The notes beneath the pieces are model-generated. The model ran no database searches. It was not told the origin of the DNA and saw only the letters and a program-made list of their open reading frames with translations. 64,000 nucleotides of DNA from Escherichia phage SDYTW1-F1-2-2_3, in the sequence record OR296290.1; one strand, given 5' to 3'. Positions within the stretch are counted from its first letter, which is position 1. Each line of letters starts with the position of its first letter. A program made the translations under genes and the position numbers. Shown here one piece after another: positions 3,788 through 51,670 of the stretch.

Positions 3788-4597
3788 TTATGCTACCTGA
3801 AGGAGTTTGATCTGCTGGTCAGCTTCTTTAACGTTGTTGCCGTTAATGATTTCATGAAGCTTCTCAATCGGAAGGCGAGAGTGCAATGCCATCAGAGTGG
3901 ACATATCACACTGCTGAACAACCTTGTCAACCTGATCGTAAACAAACTTACGATTTTCACGATCACTAATCCAGAAATTAGACAGTGAACGATATTCAAT
4001 ACCGTAGTCTTTATAACGGATTGCAGACGCTTTACCGTAGAGTTCTTTACGGCGAGTATCTTTATCCATAATAACTGCTGGAAGAGATAGGAAGTAATCA
4101 CACAACACACCCAGCATCATCTGAGTTTGCAGAGTGATATCCAAAGCACCAACTACGCCGAGATGTACGTGACCACCGGCAGTACGAAGTCCCTTATTCT
4201 GAGAAGTCGGGGATGGGTTCTTCTGACCAGTGAAAGCGTTGAAATCAGGAGTGCATCCGAAGATGAACGCTGATTCATTGAAAGTCTTCATCTCTTCTTC
4301 AGTGAAGATGTGAGAGCTAACACCCGGAGCTGTTTCCATGTCCAGTTTGTTCAGGACATTGTTGGTGAGATCGATACCACGTTGCATGTTATCGTTAAAC
4401 GCTTCAAAGCCGCTCTGTGGGTCAATATCAAACTCAGCCAGTACGTTGTCCTCTTGAAGACGAACATCCTTAGCCAGAGTGATCTTATCGTCCTTAGAAC
4501 AACCTAACAGACCAGCTACAGAGGTGATAATACCATTGCTGGTACGAACGAACATTTCCGGGTCGCTTCCTATTAAGAATTTACGTTTAGTAGTCAT
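3788..4597 (-). CDS. COOH-NH2 ligase-like (GS/GCS-like) protein (putative)
   Basis: 269-aa ORF; FLIGSDPEMF and GGHVHLGV motifs resemble carboxylate-amine ligases; same operon as amidoligase. Confidence 0.4.
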   Translation of the reverse strand: MTTKRKFLIGSDPEMFVRTSNGIITSVAGLLGCSKDDKITLAKDVRLQEDNVLAEFDIDPQSGFEAFNDNMQRGIDLTNNVLNKLDMETAPGVSSHIFTEEEMKTFNESAFIFGCTPDFNAFTGQKNPSPTSQNKGLRTAGGHVHLGVVGALDITLQTQMMLGVLCDYFLSLPAVIMDKDTRRKELYGKASAIRYKDYGIEYRSLSNFWISDRENRKFVYDQVDKVVQQCDMSTLMALHSRLPIEKLHEIINGNNVKEADQQIKLLQVA

Positions 4598-10973: not shown

Positions 10974-11077
10974 AACTGCCTCCTATTTGATTTGGCGCAC
11001 CGTGTAGGACTCCAACCTACAACCCATTTCTTAGAAGGAAATTGCTCTCTGCAATTGAGCTAACGGCGCAGAATTAT

Positions 11078-24270: not shown

Positions 24271-26514
24271 ATGGCTAAGCAAAAATATAGTGAAGAGGTG
24301 TTGGACGAGTTACGTGTTGACCTTCAACGTCGTTTTAATTACGCTCAAGGCTACGTAGACACAGCTGTTAAGGGCTATGCTCGTGAAGCTTGGGAATATT
24401 TCTATGGTAACTTACCTGCACCAGTAACTGCTGGCAGCTCTAGTTGGGTAGATCGTACTGTTTGGGAATCTGTTAATGGTACACTGCAAGATATTATTAA
24501 CGTATTCTGTTCTGGTGATGAAGCAGTTACTTTCGTAGCTGATAACCAACAGGATTCTGATGCTGCTGATGTAGCAACTAAGTTAGTTAACCAAATTCTT
24601 CTGCGTGATAATCCGGGATATAACATTATCTCTTCTGCTGCACAAGAATGTCTGGTTACTCGTAACTCTTTTATCAAATATTATTGGGATGAGCACACTT
24701 CTACTCAAACTGAAGAAGCTGAAGGTGTACCACCGGAAGCATTGGCTGCATATGTTCAGGGATTAGAAGCTGGTGGACTTAAGAATCTGGAAATCTTCAC
24801 TGAAGAAAATGAAGATGGTACAGTAGATGTTAAAGTTACTTACGAACAAACTGTTAAACGTGTGAAAGTTGAATATGTTCCTTCAGAGCAAATCTTTGTT
24901 GATGAACATGCTACCTCTTTTGCAGATGCACAATACTTTTGTCATCGTGTACGTCGCTCTAAAGAAGATCTGGTTGCTATGGGCTTCCCTAAAGATGAGA
25001 TTGAAGCATTCAACGACTGGACAGACACGATGGACACCACTCAATCTACAGTTGCTTGGTCTCGTACTGACTGGCGTCAGGACATTGATGCTGACATTGG
25101 TACAGATACTGAAGATATCGCTACTATGGTTTGGGTTTATGAGCACTATATTCGTACTGGTGTTCTAGATAAGAATAAAGAGTCTAAACTCTATCAGGTT
25201 ATTCAAGCTGGTGAGCATATCCTTCACACTGAAGAAGTAACTCACATTCCATTTGTAACCTTCTGTCCGTATCCGATTCCGGGTTCCTTCTATGGTCAAT
25301 CAGTCTATGACATTACGAAAGATATTCAGGATTTACGTACCGCGCTAGTTCGTGGTTATATTGATAACGTCAACAATGCTAACTATGGTCGATACAAAGC
25401 TCTTGTTGGTGCATACGATCGTCGCTCTCTGCTTGATAACCGTCCCGGTGGAGTGGTTGAAATGGAACGTCAGGACGCTATTGACCTGTTCCCATACCAT
25501 AACCTACCTCAAGGTATTGACGGCCTCCTAGGTATGTCTGAGGAGCTTAAAGAGACACGTACCGGTGTAACTAAACTTGGTATGGGTATCAACCCTGATG
25601 TGTTTAAGAATGATAACGCTTATGCAACCGTAGGCTTGATGATGAATGCTGCACAGAACCGTCTCCGTATGGTATGTCGTAACATTGCTCACAACGGTAT
25701 GGTTGAATTGATGCGTGGTATTTACAGCCTTATCAGAGAAAACGGTGAAGTTCCTATTGAGGTACAAACCCCTCGTGGTATGGTTCAGGTTAATCCGAAA
25801 CAATTACCAGCTCGTCATAATCTTCAAGTTGTTGTAGCTATCTCTCCTAATGAGAAAGCAGAACGTGCACAGAAACTGATTAGCTTGAAACAGCTGATTG
25901 CAGCAGATGCACAATTAGCACCTCTCTTTGGTTTGGAGCAAGACCGCTACATGACTGCACAGATCTTTGAGTTGATGGGTATTAAGGACACTCATAAATA
26001 CTTACTGCCTCTGGAACAGTATCAGCCTCCTGAGCCGTCTCCGATGGAAATCCTCCAGCTCGAGATGACTAAAGCACAGGTTGAGAACGTACAGGCTTCT
26101 TCTCAGAAGATGATTGCTGATGCATTCGACCAGCGTGAACGTACTACATTCGAACAGCAGAAAGCTGCGGATGAATTAAGTCTGCGTCAGGAAGAGTTGC
26201 AGTTCAAGCAAGAAAATGCAGCAGATGCTATGACTCTGGAAAACCGTAAAGAAGATAACAATGCAACTCTGGAACAAGCTAAGCACAAGTTAGCTCTTAT
26301 GCAACAGCAGGTCCGTCAGTATGAGTCTGTACTGAAAGAATTGCAGATGGTTATGGAACATCAGGTTGACCAAGAGAAGATTGTTCAGCAAACTCGTGTT
26401 CAGGATAAAACTTTGGAACTCCAGAAGAAAGAAGCAAATGTAACTAAGAAAGAGCAACAAGCTTCTCTCAAAGATTCACGGATTCCAGGCAAACGTCTTG
26501 GAAGTAAAAAGTAA
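24271..26514 (+). CDS. portal protein
   Basis: 747 aa immediately after terminase; long C-terminal coiled-coil. Confidence 0.75.
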   Translation: MAKQKYSEEVLDELRVDLQRRFNYAQGYVDTAVKGYAREAWEYFYGNLPAPVTAGSSSWVDRTVWESVNGTLQDIINVFCSGDEAVTFVADNQQDSDAADVATKLVNQILLRDNPGYNIISSAAQECLVTRNSFIKYYWDEHTSTQTEEAEGVPPEALAAYVQGLEAGGLKNLEIFTEENEDGTVDVKVTYEQTVKRVKVEYVPSEQIFVDEHATSFADAQYFCHRVRRSKEDLVAMGFPKDEIEAFNDWTDTMDTTQSTVAWSRTDWRQDIDADIGTDTEDIATMVWVYEHYIRTGVLDKNKESKLYQVIQAGEHILHTEEVTHIPFVTFCPYPIPGSFYGQSVYDITKDIQDLRTALVRGYIDNVNNANYGRYKALVGAYDRRSLLDNRPGGVVEMERQDAIDLFPYHNLPQGIDGLLGMSEELKETRTGVTKLGMGINPDVFKNDNAYATVGLMMNAAQNRLRMVCRNIAHNGMVELMRGIYSLIRENGEVPIEVQTPRGMVQVNPKQLPARHNLQVVVAISPNEKAERAQKLISLKQLIAADAQLAPLFGLEQDRYMTAQIFELMGIKDTHKYLLPLEQYQPPEPSPMEILQLEMTKAQVENVQASSQKMIADAFDQRERTTFEQQKAADELSLRQEELQFKQENAADAMTLENRKEDNNATLEQAKHKLALMQQQVRQYESVLKELQMVMEHQVDQEKIVQQTRVQDKTLELQKKEANVTKKEQQASLKDSRIPGKRLGSKK

Positions 26515-26523
26515 GGACGTCGA

Positions 26524-26760
26524 ATGAACATTAGGCATCAATTCAATAAAGAGCACGCCGCCGCTTTGGCGGCTCTCAATCTTAACGGCAGTCTTGACGC
26601 AGCATTAGAGGCATTGAAAGAAAGACTCATGACAGAGATAGTTCAAACTGAACCTCATGAGAATAAGAAACGCGAAGATTGTTATCAAAAGTATAAAATG
26701 GTGGGTAGCTTAAAAGAGGTCATAAAAGCTGCTATCAATAGTGCAGGAGATGTTTCATAA
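26524..26760 (+). CDS. hypothetical protein
   Basis: 78-aa ORF between portal and scaffold. Confidence 0.4.
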   Translation: MNIRHQFNKEHAAALAALNLNGSLDAALEALKERLMTEIVQTEPHENKKREDCYQKYKMVGSLKEVIKAAINSAGDVS

Positions 26761-27845
26761 TGCCACAAGATAATTATATTGACCCGAACGATTTTAAATC
26801 TTTCCTCCAACTGGATGACCTGAAAGGTTCTTTTAAAGAAGAGCTTGGTCGATTAGAATCTGAACAAGAACCAGAAGTGGACATTGACGACGAGTTCCCG
26901 GAAGATACCGGTGACAACTTCGACTTTGATACCGACCTTCTCGGTGAAAGCGATGAGCTTAAGTTCGAAGATGAAGATGGTTGGGAAGATCATGATGAGG
27001 AAGGCGAAGTCGAAGAAGATGAGGATGACTCTGATGAAGGTGATGAAAACACTGAAGTAGAAGAGGAAGACTCAAGCGATGCAGGATATGAAGATGATTC
27101 CGCTGACGGTGATGGTGAGGTCTTTGATGTAGACTACGAAACCGTTATCACCCTTCCTGATGGACGTGAGATGACTATTGAAGAACTCTCCAATGGCTAT
27201 CTTACTGGTGCTGACATGACTGAACGAGAGTCAACTCTTCAGCGTCACATGGAAGCATTTGAGGAACGTGTAGTAGGTTTGAAGGATGTATTAGAATTAG
27301 CGTCTTTAGAAGCAGACCGAGTAATTGAAGATTACAATGGTTTTGATTGGGACAAGCTTGCAGTAGAAGATCCTCAAGCATATGTTGAAAACAAACGTTT
27401 CCTAGAGAAGTACACAGCTCGTCGTAACCAGCTTGAGCAGGCTCAGATGCGTGTTAAGCAGGAAGCAGCAGCTAAAGAACAGGAAGCTTTCCAAGCCAAG
27501 AGTGTTGAGTGCGTTAATATTCTGAAACGTGAGATTCCAAATTGGGATGAAAACTTATATCAAAACTTAATGCAATATGCAATTGACTTAGGTGCTACTG
27601 AAGAAGAAGTATTGAAGGAAAACCGTCCGTCTATTTTCCTAGCTCTCCATAAAGCATACCAATTTGATAAAGGTAAGCAGCAGGTGATGGCTAAGATTAA
27701 ACGTCCCGGTGCTCCACGCAAGGTTGTGAAGTCTGATGCTGCAAAGTCTCGTACTTCCAATAAGCCAGACAACGCTAAGGTTGCCAAGGCATTCGCAGAG
27801 GGTCGCGTTAGTCACGAAGACGCATTCAAATTCCTCGTAGATTAA
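26760..27845 (+). CDS. scaffolding protein (putative)
   Basis: 361 aa, extremely acidic N-half, helical C-half; immediately upstream of capsid gene. Confidence 0.55.
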   Translation: MPQDNYIDPNDFKSFLQLDDLKGSFKEELGRLESEQEPEVDIDDEFPEDTGDNFDFDTDLLGESDELKFEDEDGWEDHDEEGEVEEDEDDSDEGDENTEVEEEDSSDAGYEDDSADGDGEVFDVDYETVITLPDGREMTIEELSNGYLTGADMTERESTLQRHMEAFEERVVGLKDVLELASLEADRVIEDYNGFDWDKLAVEDPQAYVENKRFLEKYTARRNQLEQAQMRVKQEAAAKEQEAFQAKSVECVNILKREIPNWDENLYQNLMQYAIDLGATEEEVLKENRPSIFLALHKAYQFDKGKQQVMAKIKRPGAPRKVVKSDAAKSRTSNKPDNAKVAKAFAEGRVSHEDAFKFLVD

Positions 27846-27886
27846 TCGACAAATTAATTATTTAATAGTATAGGAGCTAACATAAC

Positions 27887-28948
27887 ATGGCTAATCCAAC
27901 TTTATTTGTATCGTATGACCAGAATGGTAAAAAACTTTCTTTTGCTAACTGGATTTCTGTTCTGTCCCCTCAGGATACTCCGTTCGTATCTATGACCGGT
28001 AAAGAGTCTATCAACCAGACTATCTTTAGCTGGCAGACCGATGCACTGGCAAGCGTTGATGGTAATAACGCACACGTCGAAGGCTCTCGTGCTGAAGACG
28101 GCGAAATGAAACCGACTGTTATCAAGTCTAACGTTACTCAGATTCTGCGTAAGGTTGTTCGTGTTTCTGACACTGCTAACACCACCGCTAACTACGGTCG
28201 TGGTCGTGAACTGATGTATCAGCTGGAGAAGAAAGGTAAAGAGATCAAGCGTGACCTCGAGAAAATCCTTCTGTCCGGTCAGGCTCGTACCGACGTTTTG
28301 GCTGACCAGTATCTGACTAACTCCGCAGCCGATCCGACTCAGATTGGTAAGAACGACACCCATGCAGCTCGTAAGACTGGTGCATTCCAGTTCCTGTGTG
28401 CTCACGGCGGTCTGACTGGTGGCGTTGTTGACAAAACCAAGAATGGTCCTGCTGACCCAGATACCGGTGCTGTAACTGTTAAAGTTGCACAGAACGCTTC
28501 TAACCCGGCTACTAACATCGGCTTCGATGAAGCAGATATCTTTGATATGACTCTGCAACTGTACACCGCTGGTTCTGAAGCAGATATCATCATGATTAAC
28601 CCGGCTCATGCTAAGATCTTCGCTGGCCTGCAAGAAAATACTCAGGGTTCACGTAAGCGTATCTTTGAGAACACCAAGCAGTTCATCTACGAAGTTAACA
28701 GCATCACTGACCCGCTGGGCCAGAGCTACAAAATCATCGTTAACCGTTGGATGCCTACTGATGCAGTTTACTTCTTCCGTAGCGCTGACTGGACCCAGAT
28801 GGTTCTGCGTGCTCCGAAACGTACTGAACTGGCAAAAGATGGTTCTTACGAGAAGTGGATGATTGAGATGGAAGTTGGTCTGCGTCACCGCAACCCGTAT
28901 GCTTCCGGTGTTCTGTTCACTGCTGCGGGAAAGGCAGTAGCGGCGTAA
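27887..28948 (+). CDS. major capsid protein
   Basis: 353 aa after scaffold; followed by strong terminator; carries frameshift site at its 3' end. Confidence 0.7.
   Translation: MANPTLFVSYDQNGKKLSFANWISVLSPQDTPFVSMTGKESINQTIFSWQTDALASVDGNNAHVEGSRAEDGEMKPTVIKSNVTQILRKVVRVSDTANTTANYGRGRELMYQLEKKGKEIKRDLEKILLSGQARTDVLADQYLTNSAADPTQIGKNDTHAARKTGAFQFLCAHGGLTGGVVDKTKNGPADPDTGAVTVKVAQNASNPATNIGFDEADIFDMTLQLYTAGSEADIIMINPAHAKIFAGLQENTQGSRKRIFENTKQFIYEVNSITDPLGQSYKIIVNRWMPTDAVYFFRSADWTQMVLRAPKRTELAKDGSYEKWMIEMEVGLRHRNPYASGVLFTAAGKAVAA
28927..28933 (+). other. programmed -1 ribosomal frameshift slippery heptamer G_GGA_AAG
   Basis: Canonical X_XXY_YYZ heptamer in zero frame four codons before capsid stop; -1 frame open from 28867 to 29475. 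Confidence 0.55.
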
Positions 28949-29475
28949 CAGTAGATACCATAACTGTTAGTCCTTCGTCGGTTGCAAGCCTTCCGACGGG
29001 GGCTACTCAGCAGTTTACAGCTACAGCACAAATGAGTGATAGCTCCACATCAACAACTGGATTTGTTTGGTCCGTTGAGGGTGGTGGGGCTATTTCTGTT
29101 TCTGGACTGTACACTGCACCGAGTGCGTCGCAAGAAACCCCGATTACAGTGAAAGCTACTAAAGGTGGTAAATCCGGTACATCTACGATCTCAGCTATTG
29201 CTGACCCTGAACCTACCCTTGTTAGCCGAGGTCCGATTTCAGGGAAGGTGGGTGGATCAACAACCGCATTCTCTACTATGTTTACAGCAACAAACTCTAC
29301 CGGAAGTGACTATACTTTTGAGGTAACTCCTCCGGAAGCGGGAACTGTTAGTGCAGCTGGTCTTTTGACTCTTGCTGATACTGCTATGGGTGCAGTCTCT
29401 GTTGCAGCTACACACGAGACTAAACCTCTTGTAACAGCCACTTGTGAATTCACAGGTGTAACACCTGCTGCTTAA
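28927..29475 (+). CDS. Ig-like (Big_2-type) C-terminal extension of major capsid protein made by -1 frameshift
   Basis: -1 frame reads GKGSSGVTVDTITVSPSSVASLPTGATQQFTATAQ..., a Big_2-like beta-strand pattern that starts upstream of the only in-frame ATG (29032), which lacks an SD. Confidence 0.55.
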   Translation, partial: GKGSSGVTVDTITVSPSSVASLPTGATQQFTATAQMSDSSTSTTGFVWSVEGGGAISVSGLYTAPSASQETPITVKATKGGKSGTSTISAIADPEPTLVSRGPISGKVGGSTTAFSTMFTATNSTGSDYTFEVTPPEAGTVSAAGLLTLADTAMGAVSVAATHETKPLVTATCEFTGVTPAA

Positions 29476-29482
29476 AATTAGA

Positions 29483-29507
29483 CCCTGCCTTCGGGCGGGG
29501 TTTTTTT
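29483..29507 (+). terminator. rho-independent terminator after capsid/Ig-extension gene
   Basis: CCCTGCC-TTCG-GGCGGGG stem with UUCG tetraloop followed by seven T. Confidence 0.7.
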
Positions 29508-29535
29508 CGTTTTAAGACCTATACAAGCTAGTGTG

Positions 29536-29544
29536 TAATGTATA
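29536..29544 (+). promoter_or_regulatory. TAATGTATA promoter-like motif (candidate phage-sigma-dependent late promoter)
   Basis: Exact TAATGTATA 33 nt upstream of ATG 29578, just after capsid terminator. Confidence 0.4.
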
Positions 29545-29577
29545 TTCTTTGTCTACATATAACAAGGAGGACAACCT

Positions 29578-30330
29578 ATGGCGATGCCTGAAGTGCAAAA
29601 CCCGACTAACACGTATGGCTGGCTTAAGAAAGCTGTTGCCTTGTGGGCCGATCGAGACGATGATGAATTTGTTAATCAAATTCCAAACTTTATTAACTTT
29701 GCAGAGAAAGAGATTTATCGTAACTTACGTATCCCTCCTCTGGAAAAAGAAGTGTATTTAGATATTAAAGATGGAGTAGCTTATATTCCTCCTGATTACT
29801 TAGAAGCTCAATGGATGATGAGAGCCAAAGACGGAACAATCTTCCAAGTAACATCTCCTGAGGAGATTAGCTATCGTAGACAGCATGGAACAATTAACCC
29901 ATCTCACTGGAACAACCAACCTGTTAACTTTGCTCGTTTCGGTAGTCGTTTCATTTTCTACCCTAGAATCGAAGCAGACACTCCTGTTTACCCTGATGAT
30001 GGAAGTCCTTTGATTCCAGCAGAAAACTCAGTAATTCTTAGCTATTATGCAGATCCACCGGAATTTCATGAAGATGAAGATACTAGTGCAATCCTCACTA
30101 TCGCACCAGAGCTTCTTCTGTATTTTACTCTACGTCATGCTTGCTTGTTTGTTCAAGATGATAACGGAGTTCAGAAATGGTCAGCATTAGGAAAAGCTAT
30201 CCTTGATGAAATGGTAGAGCAGAATAAGAAGCAAGAGTACTCAGGTTCACCTATCGCAATTCCGAATAACATGACTCGACTTCAGAGCAGCTTGCCTGAT
30301 ATTTATGGTATTCGTACTTCTCGTGTATAA
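29578..30330 (+). CDS. virion structural protein (possible head-tail adaptor)
   Basis: 250 aa; first gene after capsid terminator; AAGGAGG SD. Confidence 0.35.
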   Translation: MAMPEVQNPTNTYGWLKKAVALWADRDDDEFVNQIPNFINFAEKEIYRNLRIPPLEKEVYLDIKDGVAYIPPDYLEAQWMMRAKDGTIFQVTSPEEISYRRQHGTINPSHWNNQPVNFARFGSRFIFYPRIEADTPVYPDDGSPLIPAENSVILSYYADPPEFHEDEDTSAILTIAPELLLYFTLRHACLFVQDDNGVQKWSALGKAILDEMVEQNKKQEYSGSPIAIPNNMTRLQSSLPDIYGIRTSRV

Positions 30331-47042: not shown

Positions 47043-47051
47043 TAATGTATA
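47043..47051 (+). promoter_or_regulatory. TAATGTATA promoter-like motif
   Basis: Exact TAATGTATATA 38 nt upstream of ATG 47090. Confidence 0.4.
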
Positions 47052-47089
47052 TAGGGGGTAGGACATTTTTATTTATAAAAGGAGACGTT

Positions 47090-50000
47090 ATGGCTAACAT
47101 TAAACCGTGGGAAGAAGCTTCCAAAGCTCCTGCGTATCTGAATGCCTCTCCGGAGCGTCAAGCTCAAATGAGAGAACAATATAAGGCAGCAGGTGGCTCT
47201 ATTCCTGAGGAACGACCAGTGGCACAACCACAACAAGAAGAACGTGGTGTTATTGGTGAGTTTGCTCAAGGTGTGTCAAATGCTCTTCAATCTGGTGGTG
47301 CAAACATCGCAGCTAGTACTGCTAGAGGTGTTGGTGGTTTGGTTGAGCTTGGTGAAAACCTAGCTGGAGCACAAACTAGTTATGGTAAGCGTATCCAAGA
47401 GAATGCTCAAAACCTCTTGAAAGAACGTATGGATAAGATTGAGGATGGGATTGGTAAAACTGCCGGTCAGTACGCTGGAGTGGCTGCCGATATCGGTTTG
47501 ACAGTTGCTAGCCCATTAACTGCCGCTGCTGTCATCGCAGGTCGTGAGACAGGTCGTGCATATGCAGACCAAACCCCTGAAGAGGGAGAAGATAAGTCTG
47601 TTCTGGATGCAGCTCTAGTCGGTGGTGCTAACTATGCAGCTATGAGAATCCTTCCGGGTGCTGTTGGTACAGCTGAGTCCACACTTGGACGTATTGGTCA
47701 GAACGTTGCTTCTAACGCAGTGGCTGGTGCTAAAGGTGGTGCTCTTATTGGTGCTGCTGAAGCTCAGAACAAATATGGTGATGACAATGATCTAGCTAAG
47801 ACACTAGAAGGTGTTATCACAGAAGGGGCTATGGGTGCTGCATTTGGTGGTGCAGTTGGTGGGGTTCATGGTTTGATTAGTCGTCCGGATTCTGCTGTCT
47901 TTAGGAACACTCCAGAGTATGCGAAGACTGATATTGCTGCTGATGATGAGTTGATTCGTAGTGCTAAGAATATTGATGAACTGAAAGAAGCCTACTCTAA
48001 AGCTGAAACTGCTAATGCTGCTTCTGCCCTTAATCTTCTGGATGAGAATGGATTCCGTATCACAGATGCTGTTGCTGTAGATTCTCCTGCTGCTCAGCGT
48101 ATTCTTAATACAGACCAAGCTCGTGCTGAGAAAGCTGCTTCTGCTCAGAAAGACCACTCTAACATCCCGGGCCTTAATCCTTTGGCTGCCCCTGCTAAGA
48201 CTCGTGGTAAAGCTTTCGCTGATAATGAGCACAACCAGAAACAGGCTGTTGCTATGAAAGATGCAATGGCTGATTACACCAAGGATAACACTAAAACTCT
48301 TACAGATGTTCTAGATAATCTAGATCGTGAATTAACCTCTCTCCGAGCTTCTGGTGACTTTACTGGCAGCCCGATTGATATTAAGAATCGCACACAAGCT
48401 GACCGTGATTTCATTGATGCTTACAAGACTTTCTATAATGAAGCAAACCGATTCAAAGCTCGTGATGGTGAAGACTTTAACAACTTTGTAGAGAAAGCTA
48501 CTGAGCTACAGAAGATGGCTGATAACGTTTCTCCAGAGATGAAGAAAGCTATTGGTGGGTTGAAAAAACTGAAGGGTATGCCTGAAGGTTTTAATCCTAT
48601 CCAAGACGCTTACACTCTGAACAACACAGCTAAGTTTATGAGCAACCAAGATCGTGGTTGGACTTCCCTAACTGACGACGGCTTCCGTGAGGCTTCTTCT
48701 CCTAGTCTGGTTATGAACACCCTTGGTGCTGCTAAGTATGCTCTGAATCGCTTCTCTTCTCAGCGTGCTCGCTCTCAACGTGTTAAACAACAAGAATCTA
48801 ACAGTGAAGCTATCCGCTCTCTGGCTCGTGGTGATTTGGAAGTTGCTCGTGCTAAATCTACTGCTGATGAAGCTCGTGCTAAAATGGAAGAAGAACCAGT
48901 TGTTGATGACATTAATTTTAAGACGCAAAATGACGTAGAAACCGAACCGGTTCGGGAGCCTTCTTCTAGTACTGTGACGGAAGAAAATCTTCCTTCTTCT
49001 GCTCTTCAAGATTCCCCTCTTACAGCTCGTGATTTAGTTGCGCAAAGACGTGCTATCCGTCAGGCTGAACAGCGTCGTGCTGAAGAAGAGGCGGCGGCAG
49101 CTCGAGAAGCTCCGGTTGAACAGGCTCCACAGGCTGAACCTCTCCCTGCTCGTAATCCTTTAGAGGAGCGTCGTGCAATAGAGCAGCAACGTGCTCAAGA
49201 AGAGGGCCAAAAGGCTTCATCAGAGGATGCATCTTCTGTTACTAAAGAATCCCTCTCTCACTATGCTGAAGATGGGATACTTTCTCAAGACTTAAATGGC
49301 AACATTGCTCTTCGCCTAAACCAGTTCACCCCAGCTGAGCAACAGTTTTTGCGTAACCATAATTTGGTTGACTCAAACGATATGGTCAAAGCTAGTTCTC
49401 TAAGACAAGCTGATCCATTACCTGCTCGTGCTCCTAAAGCTCCTAAGGAAGCTGTACAGGACGTTAAACCGGCAAGTGGTGTAGAACGCTTAGCTGCTAT
49501 GTCTAGTGCTGCTCGTCAGGCTACTAAAGATCGTGCAGAACGTTTTGCTCGTTCTCTGTATTCTAAGGCTGCTAAGGCTAAAGCTACTGCTGAAAACTTC
49601 TTGGCTTACAAGGGTGATCCTAAGGAATTGATGCGTCGTATTCGTCAGGAAGATAATGCTATCAACACTGAACGTCATGAAGAGATGGCTCGTAATCAGC
49701 TAGCTTCTCAGCAAGGTATTGCTACTGCTAAGAACAACACTGTACGAACTAACTTTGCTGAATGGGTTAAGGAACGTGGTCTGCCAGAAGACATTGCTAC
49801 TAAGGCATTACGTGCTGAAGAGAAAGGTTTAGGTGGGAACGTAACTAACTTGGATAGTCTTAAACGTCGTGCTGAAAGGTTGTATCAGAAGCAGCGTGAG
49901 GATGAGTTTGATAGACTGTATCAACAAGCTCTAGAAGAGAATAAAGCTTTCGACAAGAAAGATGCTCCTAAACTGGTTGACCAGAAGAAAGAGCTTCAAT

Positions 50001-51670
50001 CTGAGATTGATACTTTGGTTGATTCAGAACCTTTACGTCCTGCTCAGAAAGATGCTATGCGTAAGCTGATGAATGATTATGTAGATGGGAAGTTTAAATC
50101 TTCAGAGAAAGCTGGTAGGGAAGAGGCTTTGGAAGTTGGTCAGATGAAGGATGTTTGGGATGGGTTTATTAACACCTATAACAGAGAAGTGAATGCCTTC
50201 AACAAAGCTAACAAGAACTCTCAATATGAAGCTGCTGCTAAACACTTGCAGGCTCGTGAAGAACGTCTTGCTACTCTGAAAAATAAGGCACAGGCTCGTT
50301 CAGATGCTAAAGCTGCTGTTGAGAATGAACGTAAGACTCTAGAGGCTATTGCAGCTCAGAAGAGTGAGATTGAGAAGATGATGGAAGGTTTACCTAAGCC
50401 TGTTCGTGAAGCTCAGGAATCTCGTACATTGAAACAGTTGGCTGCTCACCATGATAAGAACTCTCCAGTTCCTCCAGAGAAGTTCCGTAGTTACATTGAA
50501 CGTATCCATAACGCCGAGTCAGATTACCTTGACCGTCAGCGTCGTTTAACTGATGCAGAGGAAGATGCTCGTCAGGATAAGTGGAACAAGATGTATGAGC
50601 AAGCGGAAGAGATGGACCGTAAGTTTGATATAGACAAAAGAGTTAAGCGCAGTGAAGAGCTTAAAGCTGCTCAGAAGCGTGAGAATGACCTTATGGCAGT
50701 ACAACGTCAACGTGATGACATTCATCGCCGCCTGATGCATACTATGGAAGATAAGGGCATATCTAGAGAGGATGCTGAAGCATTTGCTGGTTCCTACATG
50801 GATAACCGTTATGCACTTCTTGAGAAGCCTATGACTCCTACTGAACATCAGAATGCTCGTTCTCGTATCGAGGCTGATGTTGAGAAGTTTGCTAAGAAGT
50901 ACGAATCAATGACCCCTATCGAGAAAGAGATTGTTAAGATTACTGGAGATACTGAAGGTAAGCTTGATAACTTGGATGCGGATACTAGGAAGGCTGTTGA
51001 GGAGGCTCAGAAGGTTGACTCTGATATTAAGAAACTGCAAGAGGAAGAGTTGGAGATGGAGAAGATTCGTTCTGCTCTGCCTGACGATGAAAAATCTCAA
51101 GCAAATTCTGATATCTTGGAAAGTATTAAGCAGCAGGAAGAAGTCTTTGCTGATAAAGTAGAGAAAGCTTTCTTGAGTGGGAAGAGCTTGGATGAGTTAG
51201 CTAGTGTGGCTGAAGTTTTAGACAGGGTTCATGGTGCAGACAAGGCTGGTAACAACCGTCGCTTTGTACGTGCATTGCAGACTGCTGCTGAAAACAAGAA
51301 GAAGTATGGTGATAATCCGGTAGCTTGGTTTAGTGCTGATGATTATTCTGCTATTGCTAAACTTGGTGCTTCTTCCGCAGGTGGTAACAAATCTAGAGCA
51401 CTGGAGAAGATCTTTGGTTCTACAGCTGAACAAGCTAAGAGTAAGTTGCTTGGCAGGGATGATGTAGCTAAGATGAGACGTGTGATTGAAGAGAACCCTG
51501 ATGTTAAGATTCCTTCTTACAAGACAACGAATCGTACTGAGTACTTGCAGTTCTTGGAGAAGTTTAATGACGAAGGGAAGCCGAAGATTAAACGTGGCTC
51601 ATTGTCAGAGAAGCTTGAACGCAGTAAGCGTCAATCGAGACTCCGTGTAAGAGTTCGACCTAAGGAGTGA
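47090..51670 (+). CDS. giant internal virion (ejection/core) protein
   Basis: Track ORF trimmed to ATG 47090 with AAAGGAGA SD; ~1526 aa; Gly/Ala-rich N-part then very long charged coiled-coil-like region. Confidence 0.55.
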   Translation: MANIKPWEEASKAPAYLNASPERQAQMREQYKAAGGSIPEERPVAQPQQEERGVIGEFAQGVSNALQSGGANIAASTARGVGGLVELGENLAGAQTSYGKRIQENAQNLLKERMDKIEDGIGKTAGQYAGVAADIGLTVASPLTAAAVIAGRETGRAYADQTPEEGEDKSVLDAALVGGANYAAMRILPGAVGTAESTLGRIGQNVASNAVAGAKGGALIGAAEAQNKYGDDNDLAKTLEGVITEGAMGAAFGGAVGGVHGLISRPDSAVFRNTPEYAKTDIAADDELIRSAKNIDELKEAYSKAETANAASALNLLDENGFRITDAVAVDSPAAQRILNTDQARAEKAASAQKDHSNIPGLNPLAAPAKTRGKAFADNEHNQKQAVAMKDAMADYTKDNTKTLTDVLDNLDRELTSLRASGDFTGSPIDIKNRTQADRDFIDAYKTFYNEANRFKARDGEDFNNFVEKATELQKMADNVSPEMKKAIGGLKKLKGMPEGFNPIQDAYTLNNTAKFMSNQDRGWTSLTDDGFREASSPSLVMNTLGAAKYALNRFSSQRARSQRVKQQESNSEAIRSLARGDLEVARAKSTADEARAKMEEEPVVDDINFKTQNDVETEPVREPSSSTVTEENLPSSALQDSPLTARDLVAQRRAIRQAEQRRAEEEAAAAREAPVEQAPQAEPLPARNPLEERRAIEQQRAQEEGQKASSEDASSVTKESLSHYAEDGILSQDLNGNIALRLNQFTPAEQQFLRNHNLVDSNDMVKASSLRQADPLPARAPKAPKEAVQDVKPASGVERLAAMSSAARQATKDRAERFARSLYSKAAKAKATAENFLAYKGDPKELMRRIRQEDNAINTERHEEMARNQLASQQGIATAKNNTVRTNFAEWVKERGLPEDIATKALRAEEKGLGGNVTNLDSLKRRAERLYQKQREDEFDRLYQQALEENKAFDKKDAPKLVDQKKELQSEIDTLVDSEPLRPAQKDAMRKLMNDYVDGKFKSSEKAGREEALEVGQMKDVWDGFINTYNREVNAFNKANKNSQYEAAAKHLQAREERLATLKNKAQARSDAKAAVENERKTLEAIAAQKSEIEKMMEGLPKPVREAQESRTLKQLAAHHDKNSPVPPEKFRSYIERIHNAESDYLDRQRRLTDAEEDARQDKWNKMYEQAEEMDRKFDIDKRVKRSEELKAAQKRENDLMAVQRQRDDIHRRLMHTMEDKGISREDAEAFAGSYMDNRYALLEKPMTPTEHQNARSRIEADVEKFAKKYESMTPIEKEIVKITGDTEGKLDNLDADTRKAVEEAQKVDSDIKKLQEEELEMEKIRSALPDDEKSQANSDILESIKQQEEVFADKVEKAFLSGKSLDELASVAEVLDRVHGADKAGNNRRFVRALQTAAENKKKYGDNPVAWFSADDYSAIAKLGASSAGGNKSRALEKIFGSTAEQAKSKLLGRDDVAKMRRVIEENPDVKIPSYKTTNRTEYLQFLEKFNDEGKPKIKRGSLSEKLERSKRQSRLRVRVRPKE

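Follow-up and report, generated by a model that had tools for sequence, protein, structure and literature searches.

A predicted −1 ribosomal frameshift adding Ig-like domains to the major capsid protein of a Kuravirus-type Escherichia coli podophage

Capsid frameshifting in the Kuravirus group and comparable systems

Frameshifting of a capsid gene into an Ig-like extension is already known and annotated in the Kuravirus group, and detection of the long product has been reported in the literature on close relatives of the phage studied here. For phiEco32, citing sources credit this detection to the 2008 phiEco32 paper (PMID 18294652), and for SU10 a mass-spectrometry table lists capsid forms of 38.5 and 55.4 kDa (PMC4281155). 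In the GenBank record of phage Paul, the CDS is joined and annotated 'Frameshift at GGGAAAG', citing phiEco32 and PMID 18294652, and in 2023 the frameshift was presented as a property shared across Kuravirus-like phages (PMC9965538, section 3.3.2). An equivalent product occurs in Privateer, where two bands were seen by SDS-PAGE and the minor form was found by MS (PMC7881722).

Outside this group, a −1 shift near the 3′ end of the capsid gene gives a minor longer isoform in the shell of T7 (gene 10A/10B) and T3, and the T3 extension is Ig-like, as at the locus described here (PMC5009743, PMC9965538); this likeness to T7 and T3 is one of mechanism only. The T7 capsid frameshift rate is given as ~10% (PMC9965538). 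The lambda G/GT slip site GGGAAAG is the identical heptamer, G_GGA_AAG, also decoded in E. coli (PMC3296357), with a quoted efficiency of ~3.5% (PMC9965538), and G_GGA_AAG ranks as highly shift-prone in E. coli (PMC5009743). Unlike the capsid product considered here, lambda G/GT is a tail assembly chaperone which is not in the virion and has no Ig-like domain.

C-terminal extensions can also reach capsid proteins without frameshifting. Grimontviridae (Salmonella phage 7-11, Cronobacter phages GAP52 and A24) have homologous capsids in plain and C-terminally extended forms, but these come from two separate genes with the extension in frame on the second paralog, and no slip site ends the first. 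The 448-aa protein of PDB 6qvk, which we take to be phi29 gp8, comes from a prolate podophage and is a capsid protein of HK97 fold with a C-terminal Big_2-like domain, an arrangement similar to that proposed here; it differs in having one domain that is fused in frame without a frameshift and is therefore present on every subunit.

In this study, we analyzed the capsid locus in a stretch of 64,000 nucleotides (the window) from Escherichia phage SDYTW1-F1-2-2_3 (OR296290.1), following up an earlier note made from the sequence alone. As in phiEco32, SU10, Paul and YF01 (gp11-gp12 fusion at GGGAAAG), the heptamer lies at the same codon, capsid and first Ig-like domain are homologous to theirs, and there is a terminator downstream of the extension. 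The two forms, with predicted masses of 38.8 and 56.0 kDa, agree with those reported in SU10 (38.5 and 55.4 kDa).

The capsid gene, its slip site and the proposed mechanism

The window comes from a Kuravirus-type (Gordonclarkvirinae) podophage of E. coli resembling phiEco32 and SU10, and its top DNA matches were Kuravirus throughout. The short capsid form belongs to Pfam family SU10_MCP (E 6.9e-77), and the capsid protein matched the SU10 major head protein (PDB 7z45, E 1e-232) and was 97% identical to that of phiEco32 and 100% identical to that of NJ01. A further gene matched Pfam SU10_adaptor (E 7.3e-29), and the order portal, scaffold, capsid, adaptor is that of phiEco32, NJ01, XT18 and Paul; family membership and conserved gene order both identify a Kuravirus / Gordonclarkvirinae capsid locus. 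Since the late region is ~90-92% identical to the nearest records, the window represents a distinct isolate of a known kind. The features of the locus are listed in Table 1.

Table 1. Positions of the features of the capsid locus within the window
Feature	Position	Strand	Remarks
Shine-Dalgarno AGGAG, major capsid gene	27872..27876	+	Read directly; anti-SD duplex −6.5 kcal/mol
Major capsid protein, short 0-frame form	27887..28948	+	353 aa, 38.8 kDa (computed)
Slippery heptamer G_GGA_AAG, predicted −1 shift	28927..28933	+	X_XXY_YYZ register, with 28927 at codon position 3
−1 frame extension of the predicted long capsid isoform	28933..29475	+	180 aa and stop; translation and mass computed
Gly/Ser linker GSSG, −1 frame	28933..28944	+	Overlaps the last four 0-frame codons (AVAA)
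Ig-like domain 1 (Big_2)	28945..29202	+	About extension residues 5-90; AF2 strands E7-13 to E80-86
Hairpin 1	28948..28967	+	5-bp stem ACAGU/ACUGU, 10-nt loop; 14 nt after heptamer
Hairpin 2	28968..29005	+	12 bp; 34 nt after heptamer; conserved, two covarying pairs
First in-frame ATG of the −1 ORF	29032..29034	+	Extension residue 34, inside domain 1
Ig-like domain 2	29206..29466	+	About extension residues 92-178; AF2 strands E95-98 to E168-177
Intrinsic terminator	29480..29513	+	10-bp stem and T run; closes the capsid transcription unit 3′ of the extension

After the heptamer, the 0-frame continues for four sense codons (GCA GTA GCG GCG) before the TAA stop at 28946-28948. In the −1 frame, stops occur at 28864 and 29473 with none in between, so that this frame is open from 28867 to 29475. 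Direct reading thus bore out the earlier note on the position and register of the heptamer four codons before the capsid stop and on the extent of the open frame, and the strong terminator it had placed at 29483-29507 was seen as a 10-bp stem (29480-29503) that contains 6 GC pairs and precedes a T run. From the capsid stop to the start of the Ig-coding region, no terminator was found. The 64 putative genes of the window hold 41 in-frame X_XXY_YYZ heptamers, and a −1 extension of more than 30 aa follows only the one at 28927 (180 aa); the combination of heptamer and long −1 frame exceeds chance expectation. Two marks of an X_XXY_YYZ-class frameshift, a heptamer in register and a −1 frame open into a coding region lacking a start, are present.

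We therefore consider it very likely that a −1 programmed ribosomal frameshift would add an Ig-like extension to this major capsid protein, as known for the Kuravirus group. The same fusion had been proposed in the earlier note, and the heptamer register, the start codons, the Shine-Dalgarno (SD) analysis, the conservation of the heptamer and the linker all favour it.

Ribosomes would enter solely at the AGGAG motif for either isoform, and translation of both would begin at the capsid ATG (27887). The majority of ribosomes would stay in frame at G_GGA_AAG and terminate at the TAA codon, giving the 353-aa shell protein, while a minority would slip back by one base, so that the P-site tRNA-Gly pairs anew with GGG instead of GGA and the A-site tRNA-Lys with AAA instead of AAG. 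These slipped ribosomes would translate the GSSG linker and two Ig-like domains up to the stop at 29473-29475, resulting in a 529-aa, 56-kDa capsid isoform. As residues 1-349 are common to both isoforms, the long form should co-assemble in the prolate HK97-fold shell, and would then show the Ig-like tandem on the shell exterior. The extension presumably has an adhesive or decorative role on the capsid surface. The slip rate would set the ratio of long to short isoform, and judging from lambda G/GT, with its identical heptamer, a slip frequency of a few percent may be expected.

The predicted extension and alternative readings of the two frames

The full long product, join(27887..28933, 28933..29475), has a computed size of 529 aa and 56.0 kDa. 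A fusion of the capsid protein to ~180 aa of Ig-like sequence with the junction ...AAGK had been anticipated, and translation gave 180 aa with ...TAAGK followed by GSSGVTVDTITVSP as the predicted junction peptide (also written ...TAAGK-GSSGVTVDTITVSPSSVASLPTGATQQFTATAQ and ...FTAAGK/GSSGVTVDTITVSPSSVASLPTGATQQFTATAQMSDSSTSTTGFVWSVEGGGAISVSGLYTAPSASQETPITVK); the anticipated mass increase of ~19 kDa was too high, the computed difference being 17.2 kDa (56.0 vs 38.8 kDa). A Gly/Ser linker opening the shifted frame is expected of a fusion, a view supported by the relatives, in which this position reads GSGG, GGG, GGS or VGSA. The linker of NJ01 and XT18 is GSGG instead of GSSG owing to a single A/G difference at 28939.

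For the extension, AF2 predicted two all-beta domains with a mean pLDDT of 95.7 (>94 in each 10-residue block from extension residue 11 onward). The protein search found only 26 homologs, mainly truncated ORF calls, which sufficed for this confident model. The best fold match of the two-domain model was the tandem Big_2 of LigA from Leptospira (PDB 8gyr, E 2.5e-11), and a match to the Phi29 prohead capsid chains showed 31% identity over ~100 columns. Domain 1 matched Pfam Big_2 (PF02368) at residues 29-101 of the open frame (E 4.6e-7; 30.1 bits against a cut-off of 22.8), and this score above the gathering threshold together with the Ig-like beta-sandwich of the AF2 fold assigns it to the Big_2 class. 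Extension residues 7-77 also matched residues 349-418 of the 'Major capsid protein' chain of PDB 6qvk (E 1.1e-3). A Pfam search with domain 2 gave no match, its Ig-like assignment being by fold only. The PHROG match was to family 13745 (E 1.8e-75), named 'Ig domain containing protein'. Codons of the capsid gene are optimal for E. coli (CTG for 17 of 22 Leu, CGT for 15 of 16 Arg), in contrast to the extension with its non-optimal codons (ACA for 14 of 34 Thr; GC3 0.29 vs 0.48 in the capsid gene), a usage which fits a low-level product.

Relatives retaining the ORF but lacking the heptamer, named in the earlier note as evidence against frameshifting, were not seen: all 17 distinct Gordonclarkvirinae junctions have, at the same codon, an unchanged heptamer, followed by 3-5 variable codons that give G/S linkers in the −1 frame. 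The junction of the window is 99.5% identical to those of NJ01 and XT18, and a slip site at the same codon with a homologous extension places it in the Kuravirus group. Extensions in relatives measure 172-545 aa; compared with the two domains and 180 aa of the window, those of Paul, SR02, EP335, SGF2 and Bas88 reach 346-545 aa. G_GGA_AAG is also present in Privateervirus Csa009. Lahexavirus LAh_6 and four IMG/VR contigs have G_GUA_AAG in place of G_GGA_AAG, and frameshifting in Lahexavirus probably occurs there.

The Ig-like ORF could also be a gene of its own, starting at ATG 29032 and encoding a free 147-aa (~15-kDa) protein with the N-terminus MSDSST, possibly a decoration protein bound to the capsid. 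Most GenBank records of relatives start a 147-aa protein at this ATG (XT18, NJ01, phiEco32, EP335 and SGF2 annotate a separate 'Ig domain containing protein'), the PHROG 13745 profile begins precisely at its Met, and in the SU10 structure paper gp10 is considered possibly a minor capsid protein in its own right (PMC9509320). These annotations and the PHROG family, however, stem from ORF callers, which are unable to join frames. No ATG, GTG or TTG occurs in the −1 frame between 28867 and 29031, and ATG 29032 is the first of three in-frame ATGs (the others lie at extension residue 116 and at ~29386), not the sole one as had been stated. The absence of an SD sequence, also stated before, was evident from an anti-SD duplex of 0.0 kcal/mol, compared with a mean of −8.2 kcal/mol for 20 plus-strand genes of the late region. 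Among the window and 16 relatives, no start codon of the Ig ORF was conserved and none had a good SD sequence; the first in-frame start is, depending on the lineage, ATG +34, GTG +9, GTG +16 or GTG +47, and in the phiEco32, ECBP2, Bas88 and Bas92 lineages Lys or Leu stands in place of the Met. The Pfam match implies that domain 1 begins ~27 residues upstream of this ATG, in agreement with the earlier note, and initiation there would delete three beta strands of the domain (AF2 strands 7-13, 25-27 and 29-34), which lie upstream of the ATG or span it. The 33 codons 5′ of the ATG, which include the sequence VTVDTITVSPSSVASLPTGATQQFTATAQ upstream of M34, are conserved as protein and preceded by the G/S linker. 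ATG 29032 is thus probably not a real start, and we regard a separate gene as highly improbable.

Alternatively, slip site and ORF could be relics, with negligible shifting or a long form absent from virions, leaving a capsid effectively of the 353-aa protein only. In SU10, cryo-EM showed a uniform capsid with no extra or Ig-like density (PMC9509320), and a band of the long form was absent on SDS-PAGE (PMC9509320, PMC9965538); these 2022 cryo-EM and gel results conflict with the mass-spectrometry table of 2014. However, the SU10 genome record carries a 1-nt insertion (also noted in PMC9965538), specific to this record, which explains the missing long form; because it truncates the −1 frame, the SU10 cryo-EM data have no direct bearing on the window. 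In the window and in 15 of 16 other distinct junctions, the extension ORF is intact. Together with the very confident AF2 model and a heptamer that is unchanged while its neighbouring codons drift, these intact ORFs suggest that the trans-frame product is under purifying selection. The lack of a canonical stimulatory structure would also suit a relic, but lambda G/GT with the same heptamer reportedly works without a structure, as Levin et al. are said to have found in 1993. Altogether, a relic appears very unlikely. Finally, the homopolymer runs of the G3A3 sequence could in principle cause transcriptional slippage of RNA polymerase or a sequencing or assembly indel, although no site-specific evidence for either was found. 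Transcriptional slippage is supported by runs of ~7-9 identical bases, far above the three G and three A present here. The two-frame layout, in which the 0-frame ends 3-5 codons after the heptamer, is shared by 17 distinct junctions from separate isolate and metagenome records, which rules out a sequencing error. The chance that either event accounts for the locus is accordingly minute, and ribosomal frameshifting is the reading we retain.

RNA structure around the slip site and implications for the group

Bacterial frameshift sites commonly, though not necessarily, have a stimulator, either a downstream hairpin or pseudoknot or else an SD-like sequence upstream. Folding of 28934-29033 and 28900-28990 and RNAalifold analysis of 11 and 16 relatives revealed no stimulatory structure at the canonical distance of 5-9 nt, and reading of 28900-28926 revealed no SD-like motif upstream of the heptamer. 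Without a stimulator at 5-9 nt, frameshift efficiency may be low. Two candidates were set aside: a long-range stem directly after the heptamer in the minimum-energy fold of the window is apparently unmatched, by eye, in phiEco32-type sequences, and the GGG of the heptamer forms part of a consensus outer stem (columns 3-10 with 87-95), which is almost invariant and therefore uninformative. No Rfam family reached its gathering score anywhere in the window. For SU10, a stem-loop with the heptamer itself as loop was proposed (PMC4281155). It also appears in the fold of the window, but by reasoning would be unable to persist under a ribosome at the site.

Further downstream, hairpins 1 and 2 jointly gave a z-score of −2.75. 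Hairpin 1 has an invariant stem and a variable loop in relatives, and its spacing from the heptamer shortens from 14 to 11 nt in short-linker lineages. In hairpin 2, 99.5% of cells are paired across 16 sequences from about four lineages. Pair 61/75 is GC in 8, UA in 6 and AU in 2 sequences, and pair 62/74 is GC in 12 and UG in 3. Pairing is kept through GC, UA and AU changes, which force a non-synonymous P/Q/L/E change on one arm. A metagenome scan added only 18 loci, mostly duplicates of known lineages, so that the covariation test rests on about four lineages. It is rather unlikely, in our estimate, that both hairpins form an unusually distant RNA element tuning the shift rate or otherwise the ratio of long to short capsid. 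Such an element is unreported for the Kuravirus group, the stem-loop with the heptamer as loop being the sole published suggestion.

For annotation, the frameshift reading means that the locus should be described as a single capsid gene that gives two products, the longer being join(27887..28933, 28933..29475), instead of the capsid gene and separate 147-aa 'Ig domain protein' given in most GenBank records of relatives and in PHROG 13745. It would be a further case of a well-documented theme, the addition of Ig-like domains to structural proteins of phages through frameshifts. The routes compared here, a frameshift at G_GGA_AAG in Gordonclarkvirinae and Privateervirus, probably one at G_GUA_AAG in Lahexavirus, and a duplicated capsid gene in Grimontviridae, illustrate this known theme and constitute no discovery. 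How the phage adsorbs to surfaces or mucus may be influenced by the extension, a point relevant to the therapeutic use of Kuravirus phages.

Capsid gene region and its -1 reading frame

The late (structural) module found in the window is that of an E. coli podophage resembling phiEco32 and SU10. Its capsid protein matched Pfam SU10_MCP (E 6.9e-77) and also the SU10 major head protein of known structure (PDB 7z45; E 1e-232), while the next large gene matched Pfam SU10_adaptor (E 7.3e-29). On the DNA level, the capsid region shares 97.6% identity with Escherichia phage vB-EcoP-XT18 and 95.7% with NJ01, and the 25-kb late region is ~90–92% identical to several Kuraviruses; therefore, the group is well known and the sequence represents a distinct isolate within it. 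In XT18, the closest match in this region, an HNH endonuclease gene lies between the terminator behind the Ig-like ORF and the adaptor gene (compared region: locus L004, 3191-3703), whereas the window has a spacer alone. Further downstream in the late module, a 1541-aa ORF showed almost no Shine-Dalgarno (SD) pairing (-1.2 kcal/mol; most neighbours -7 to -12); its translation may be coupled to that of the gene before it, or its true start may lie elsewhere. A tRNA-Arg was called by ARAGORN; scanning the whole window against Rfam at the gathering threshold gave no match whatever, tRNA family included.

Features of the window around the capsid gene and further features mentioned in the text
Feature	Position	Description	Source
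tRNA-Arg	10993-11069 (-)	anticodon TCT	ARAGORN
Portal	24271-26514	then small ORF	ORF listing
Scaffold	26760-27845		ORF listing
Major capsid protein	27887-28948	353 aa	ORF listing
Slippery heptamer	28927-28933	G_GGA_AAG	
-1 extension	28933-29472	180 aa, Ig-like	
Hairpin 1	28948-28967	inside Ig-coding sequence	RNA folding
Hairpin 2	28968-29005	12 bp, inside Ig-coding sequence	RNA folding
Terminator	29480-29503	10-bp stem, then T run	
Spacer	29476-29577	102 nt	
Adaptor	29578-30330	next large gene after capsid	ORF listing
1541-aa ORF	47045-51670 (+)	late module	

As described in an earlier note on this DNA, the heptamer GGGAAAG, split G_GGA_AAG by the capsid frame, lies four codons before the capsid stop. 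In the 0 frame, the sense codons GCA GTA GCG GCG and then TAA come after it. The -1 frame claimed to be open is bounded by stops at 28864 and 29473, with no stop in the interval. The predicted -1 product, MCP(1-349)-GSSGVTVDTITVSP..., comprises 529 aa and 56.0 kDa compared to 38.8 kDa for the short form; the computed increment is 17.2 kDa, not ~19 kDa as previously estimated. Among 64 putative genes of the window, 41 in-frame X_XXY_YYZ heptamers were found, 40 of which have -1 extensions of 0–30 aa; chance would therefore not be expected to place a 180-aa extension four codons from a stop. The terminator predicted behind the Ig-like ORF was recovered, and none was found between the capsid stop and the Ig-coding region. 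Within this same transcription unit, codon usage contrasts sharply: nearly all codons of the capsid gene (27887-28945) are optimal ones for E. coli, whereas ACA, GGA/GGG, AGT, and CTT abound in the extension (GC3 0.29 vs. 0.48 in the capsid gene). This fits a minor product or low translation, a separate evolutionary origin, or both.

Fusion or separate Ig-like gene

Alternatively, the Ig-like ORF could be an independent gene starting at ATG 29032 (extension residue M34). In this form, as a separate 147-aa 'Ig domain containing protein', it is annotated in most relatives' GenBank records (XT18, NJ01, EP335, SGF2, and others), and the PHROG 13745 profile starts exactly at M34. The evidence speaks against it. 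Between 28867 and 29031, the -1 frame contains no ATG, GTG, or TTG. Three ATGs are in frame, so that ATG 29032 is the first and not the only one as had been stated, and it indeed lacks an SD site, with an anti-SD pairing of 0.0 kcal/mol compared to a late-region mean of -8.2 (20 genes) and -11.4 for the adaptor gene just 3′ of the ORF. Also, the Ig-like sequence begins upstream of this ATG, as Pfam Big_2 (30.1 bits; cut-off 22.8) matches from open-frame residue 29, 27 residues earlier. Across lineages, the first possible -1-frame start varies (ATG +34, GTG +9, GTG +16, GTG +47), in no case with a strong SD.

An AlphaFold2 model of the extension, built from a 21-sequence alignment, has two all-beta domains (mean pLDDT 95.7; ≥90 for 172 of 180 residues). 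According to this model, a start at residue 34 would lose or cut strands 7-13, 25-27, and 29-34 of domain 1. The top Foldseek match was to the tandem Big_2 domains of Leptospira LigA (8gyr; E 2.5e-11), with further matches to Ig-like nozzle domains of SU10 and to phi29 prohead capsid chains (31% identity, ~100 columns); a sequence search matched residues 349-418 of the 448-aa major capsid protein chain 6qvk. From the PHROG 13745 start and the 147-aa annotations, it follows that a truncated gene call has spread into family databases.

Capsid gene ends in related phages

Junctions were gathered from GenBank phages, IMG/VR, and metagenomes. All 17 distinct Gordonclarkvirinae sequences have the heptamer, unchanged, at the same codon; its loss in relatives keeping the ORF, named in the earlier note as an observation against a fusion, did not occur among them. 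The residues from the heptamer to the 0-frame stop vary (AVAA, VAAA, VVAA, VAA, AGA, AAA, LDPQQ), and the same bases encode GSSG, GSGG, GGG, GGS, or VGSA in the -1 frame, a flexible linker. The cargo is modular, since extension lengths are 172–180 aa for the NJ01, phiEco32, ECBP2, and Bas92 types but 346–545 aa for SGF2, EP335, SR02, Bas88, and Paul. A Kuravirus capsid/Ig junction (81.6% over the full 201-nt query) was also found in MZ417522.1 (24,953 bp), labelled as Mycolicibacterium smegmatis phage 'Mycolicibacterium phage J1'; given that the gene is one of E. coli phages, the match suggests that the record is contaminated or wrongly labelled.

SU10 is an exception supporting the pattern. 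Its record KM044272 (locus L038, ~2095-2110) has a 1-nt insertion compared to all other Kuraviruses (GACACTGTCTACTGTTAG vs. GACAGTGTGACTGTTAG), noted before (PMC9965538), which closes the -1 frame 11 codons past the heptamer and thereby explains the SU10 cryo-EM map without Ig-like density (PMC9509320). Mirzaei et al. 2014 (PMC4281155) predicted a frameshift for SU10 and, despite this insertion, listed 38.5- and 55.4-kDa forms in their MS table, the latter labelled '9+10', in agreement with the 38.8 and 56.0 kDa predicted here. The long form was not seen in the 2022 cryo-EM and SDS-PAGE work, and this conflict could be due to a sequencing error, a stock change, or an MS database artefact.

In Privateervirus vB_CsaP_009, G_GGA_AAG is directly followed by TAA, and the 168-aa extension has a different sequence without a Big_2-type motif. 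Lahexavirus LAh_6 from Aeromonas (L042, ~2555-2570) and four IMG/VR contigs (L010-L013, ~4407-4424) have G_GUA_AAG at the Kuravirus slip position and open Ig-like -1 frames of 88–169 aa behind it. This heptamer is non-canonical at the P site. Its identity in all five, despite their different cargo, suggests that the -1 site is functional. No slip site was found at the capsid gene end of the Grimontviridae phages 7-11 (Salmonella; L044), GAP52 (L043), A24 (L041), and PKM.Hi.22.6 (L045); a second capsid paralog with in-frame C-terminal extension directly follows the first. In three of the four, its 0 frame runs 81–301 aa beyond the YEKWM motif (first gene 27–29 aa), and in PKM.Hi.22.6 it is annotated as 778 aa. 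Duplication here takes the place of the Kuravirus frameshift, and across the relatives a plain plus an extended capsid protein appears to be reached by three routes. A 124,877-bp IMG/VR contig (UViG_3300033688_000038; L015, 1-4433) carries at least four tandem capsid paralogs of >244 (truncated by the end of the locus), 447, 361, and 307 aa. Long in-frame C-terminal extensions are present in the first two, and the last has A_AAA_AAG one codon before its stop and a 42-aa -1 tail.

Known frameshifting and conserved downstream hairpins

The capsid frameshift is an event on record, its mechanism being already known for phiEco32/SU10-like phages. The GenBank entry of Paul has a joined CDS with the note 'Frameshift at GGGAAAG', which, as worded in that entry, also assigns a frameshift to the PhiEco32 major capsid protein product (PMID 18294652). 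For Privateer, two SDS-PAGE bands were reported and the minor form was found by MS (PMC7881722), the YF01 paper describes frameshifting as a general feature of Kuravirus-like phages (PMC9965538), and frameshift-attached Ig-like domains, including that of the T3 capsid, were reviewed as a class (PMC5009743). G_GGA_AAG is among the highly shift-prone sites in E. coli (PMC5009743) and identical to the lambda G/GT slip site (PMC3296357), with a quoted efficiency of ~3.5% (PMC9965538).

RNA folding of the junction in the window and in the relatives revealed no stimulator at canonical spacing from the heptamer. Two adjacent hairpins are kept across Kuravirus lineages (joint fold z-score -2.75). Hairpin 1 varies in its loop but not in its stem; for hairpin 2, pairing amounts to 99.5% across 16 sequences, with pair 61/75 being GC in 8, UA in 6, and AU in 2 of them, and pair 62/74 GC in 12 and UG in 3. 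This covariation couples a synonymous position in a Ser codon to base two of a codon that varies between P, Q, L, and E. Since the hairpins begin 14 and 34 nt past the heptamer and about four lineages underlie the covariation, we regard a role in frameshifting as no more than a possibility. The stem-loop proposed for SU10, with the heptamer as its loop (PMC4281155), also appears when the window's junction is folded; by our reasoning, it is incompatible with a ribosome occupying the heptamer.

Heptamer register, open frame, start codons, and relatives confirm the observation and support the -1 frameshift fusion, which we regard as very probable. The conserved hairpin pair is possibly the sole new point of the locus, and the practical value lies in a corrected annotation of an extension treated as a separate gene in most relatives' records and in PHROG 13745.
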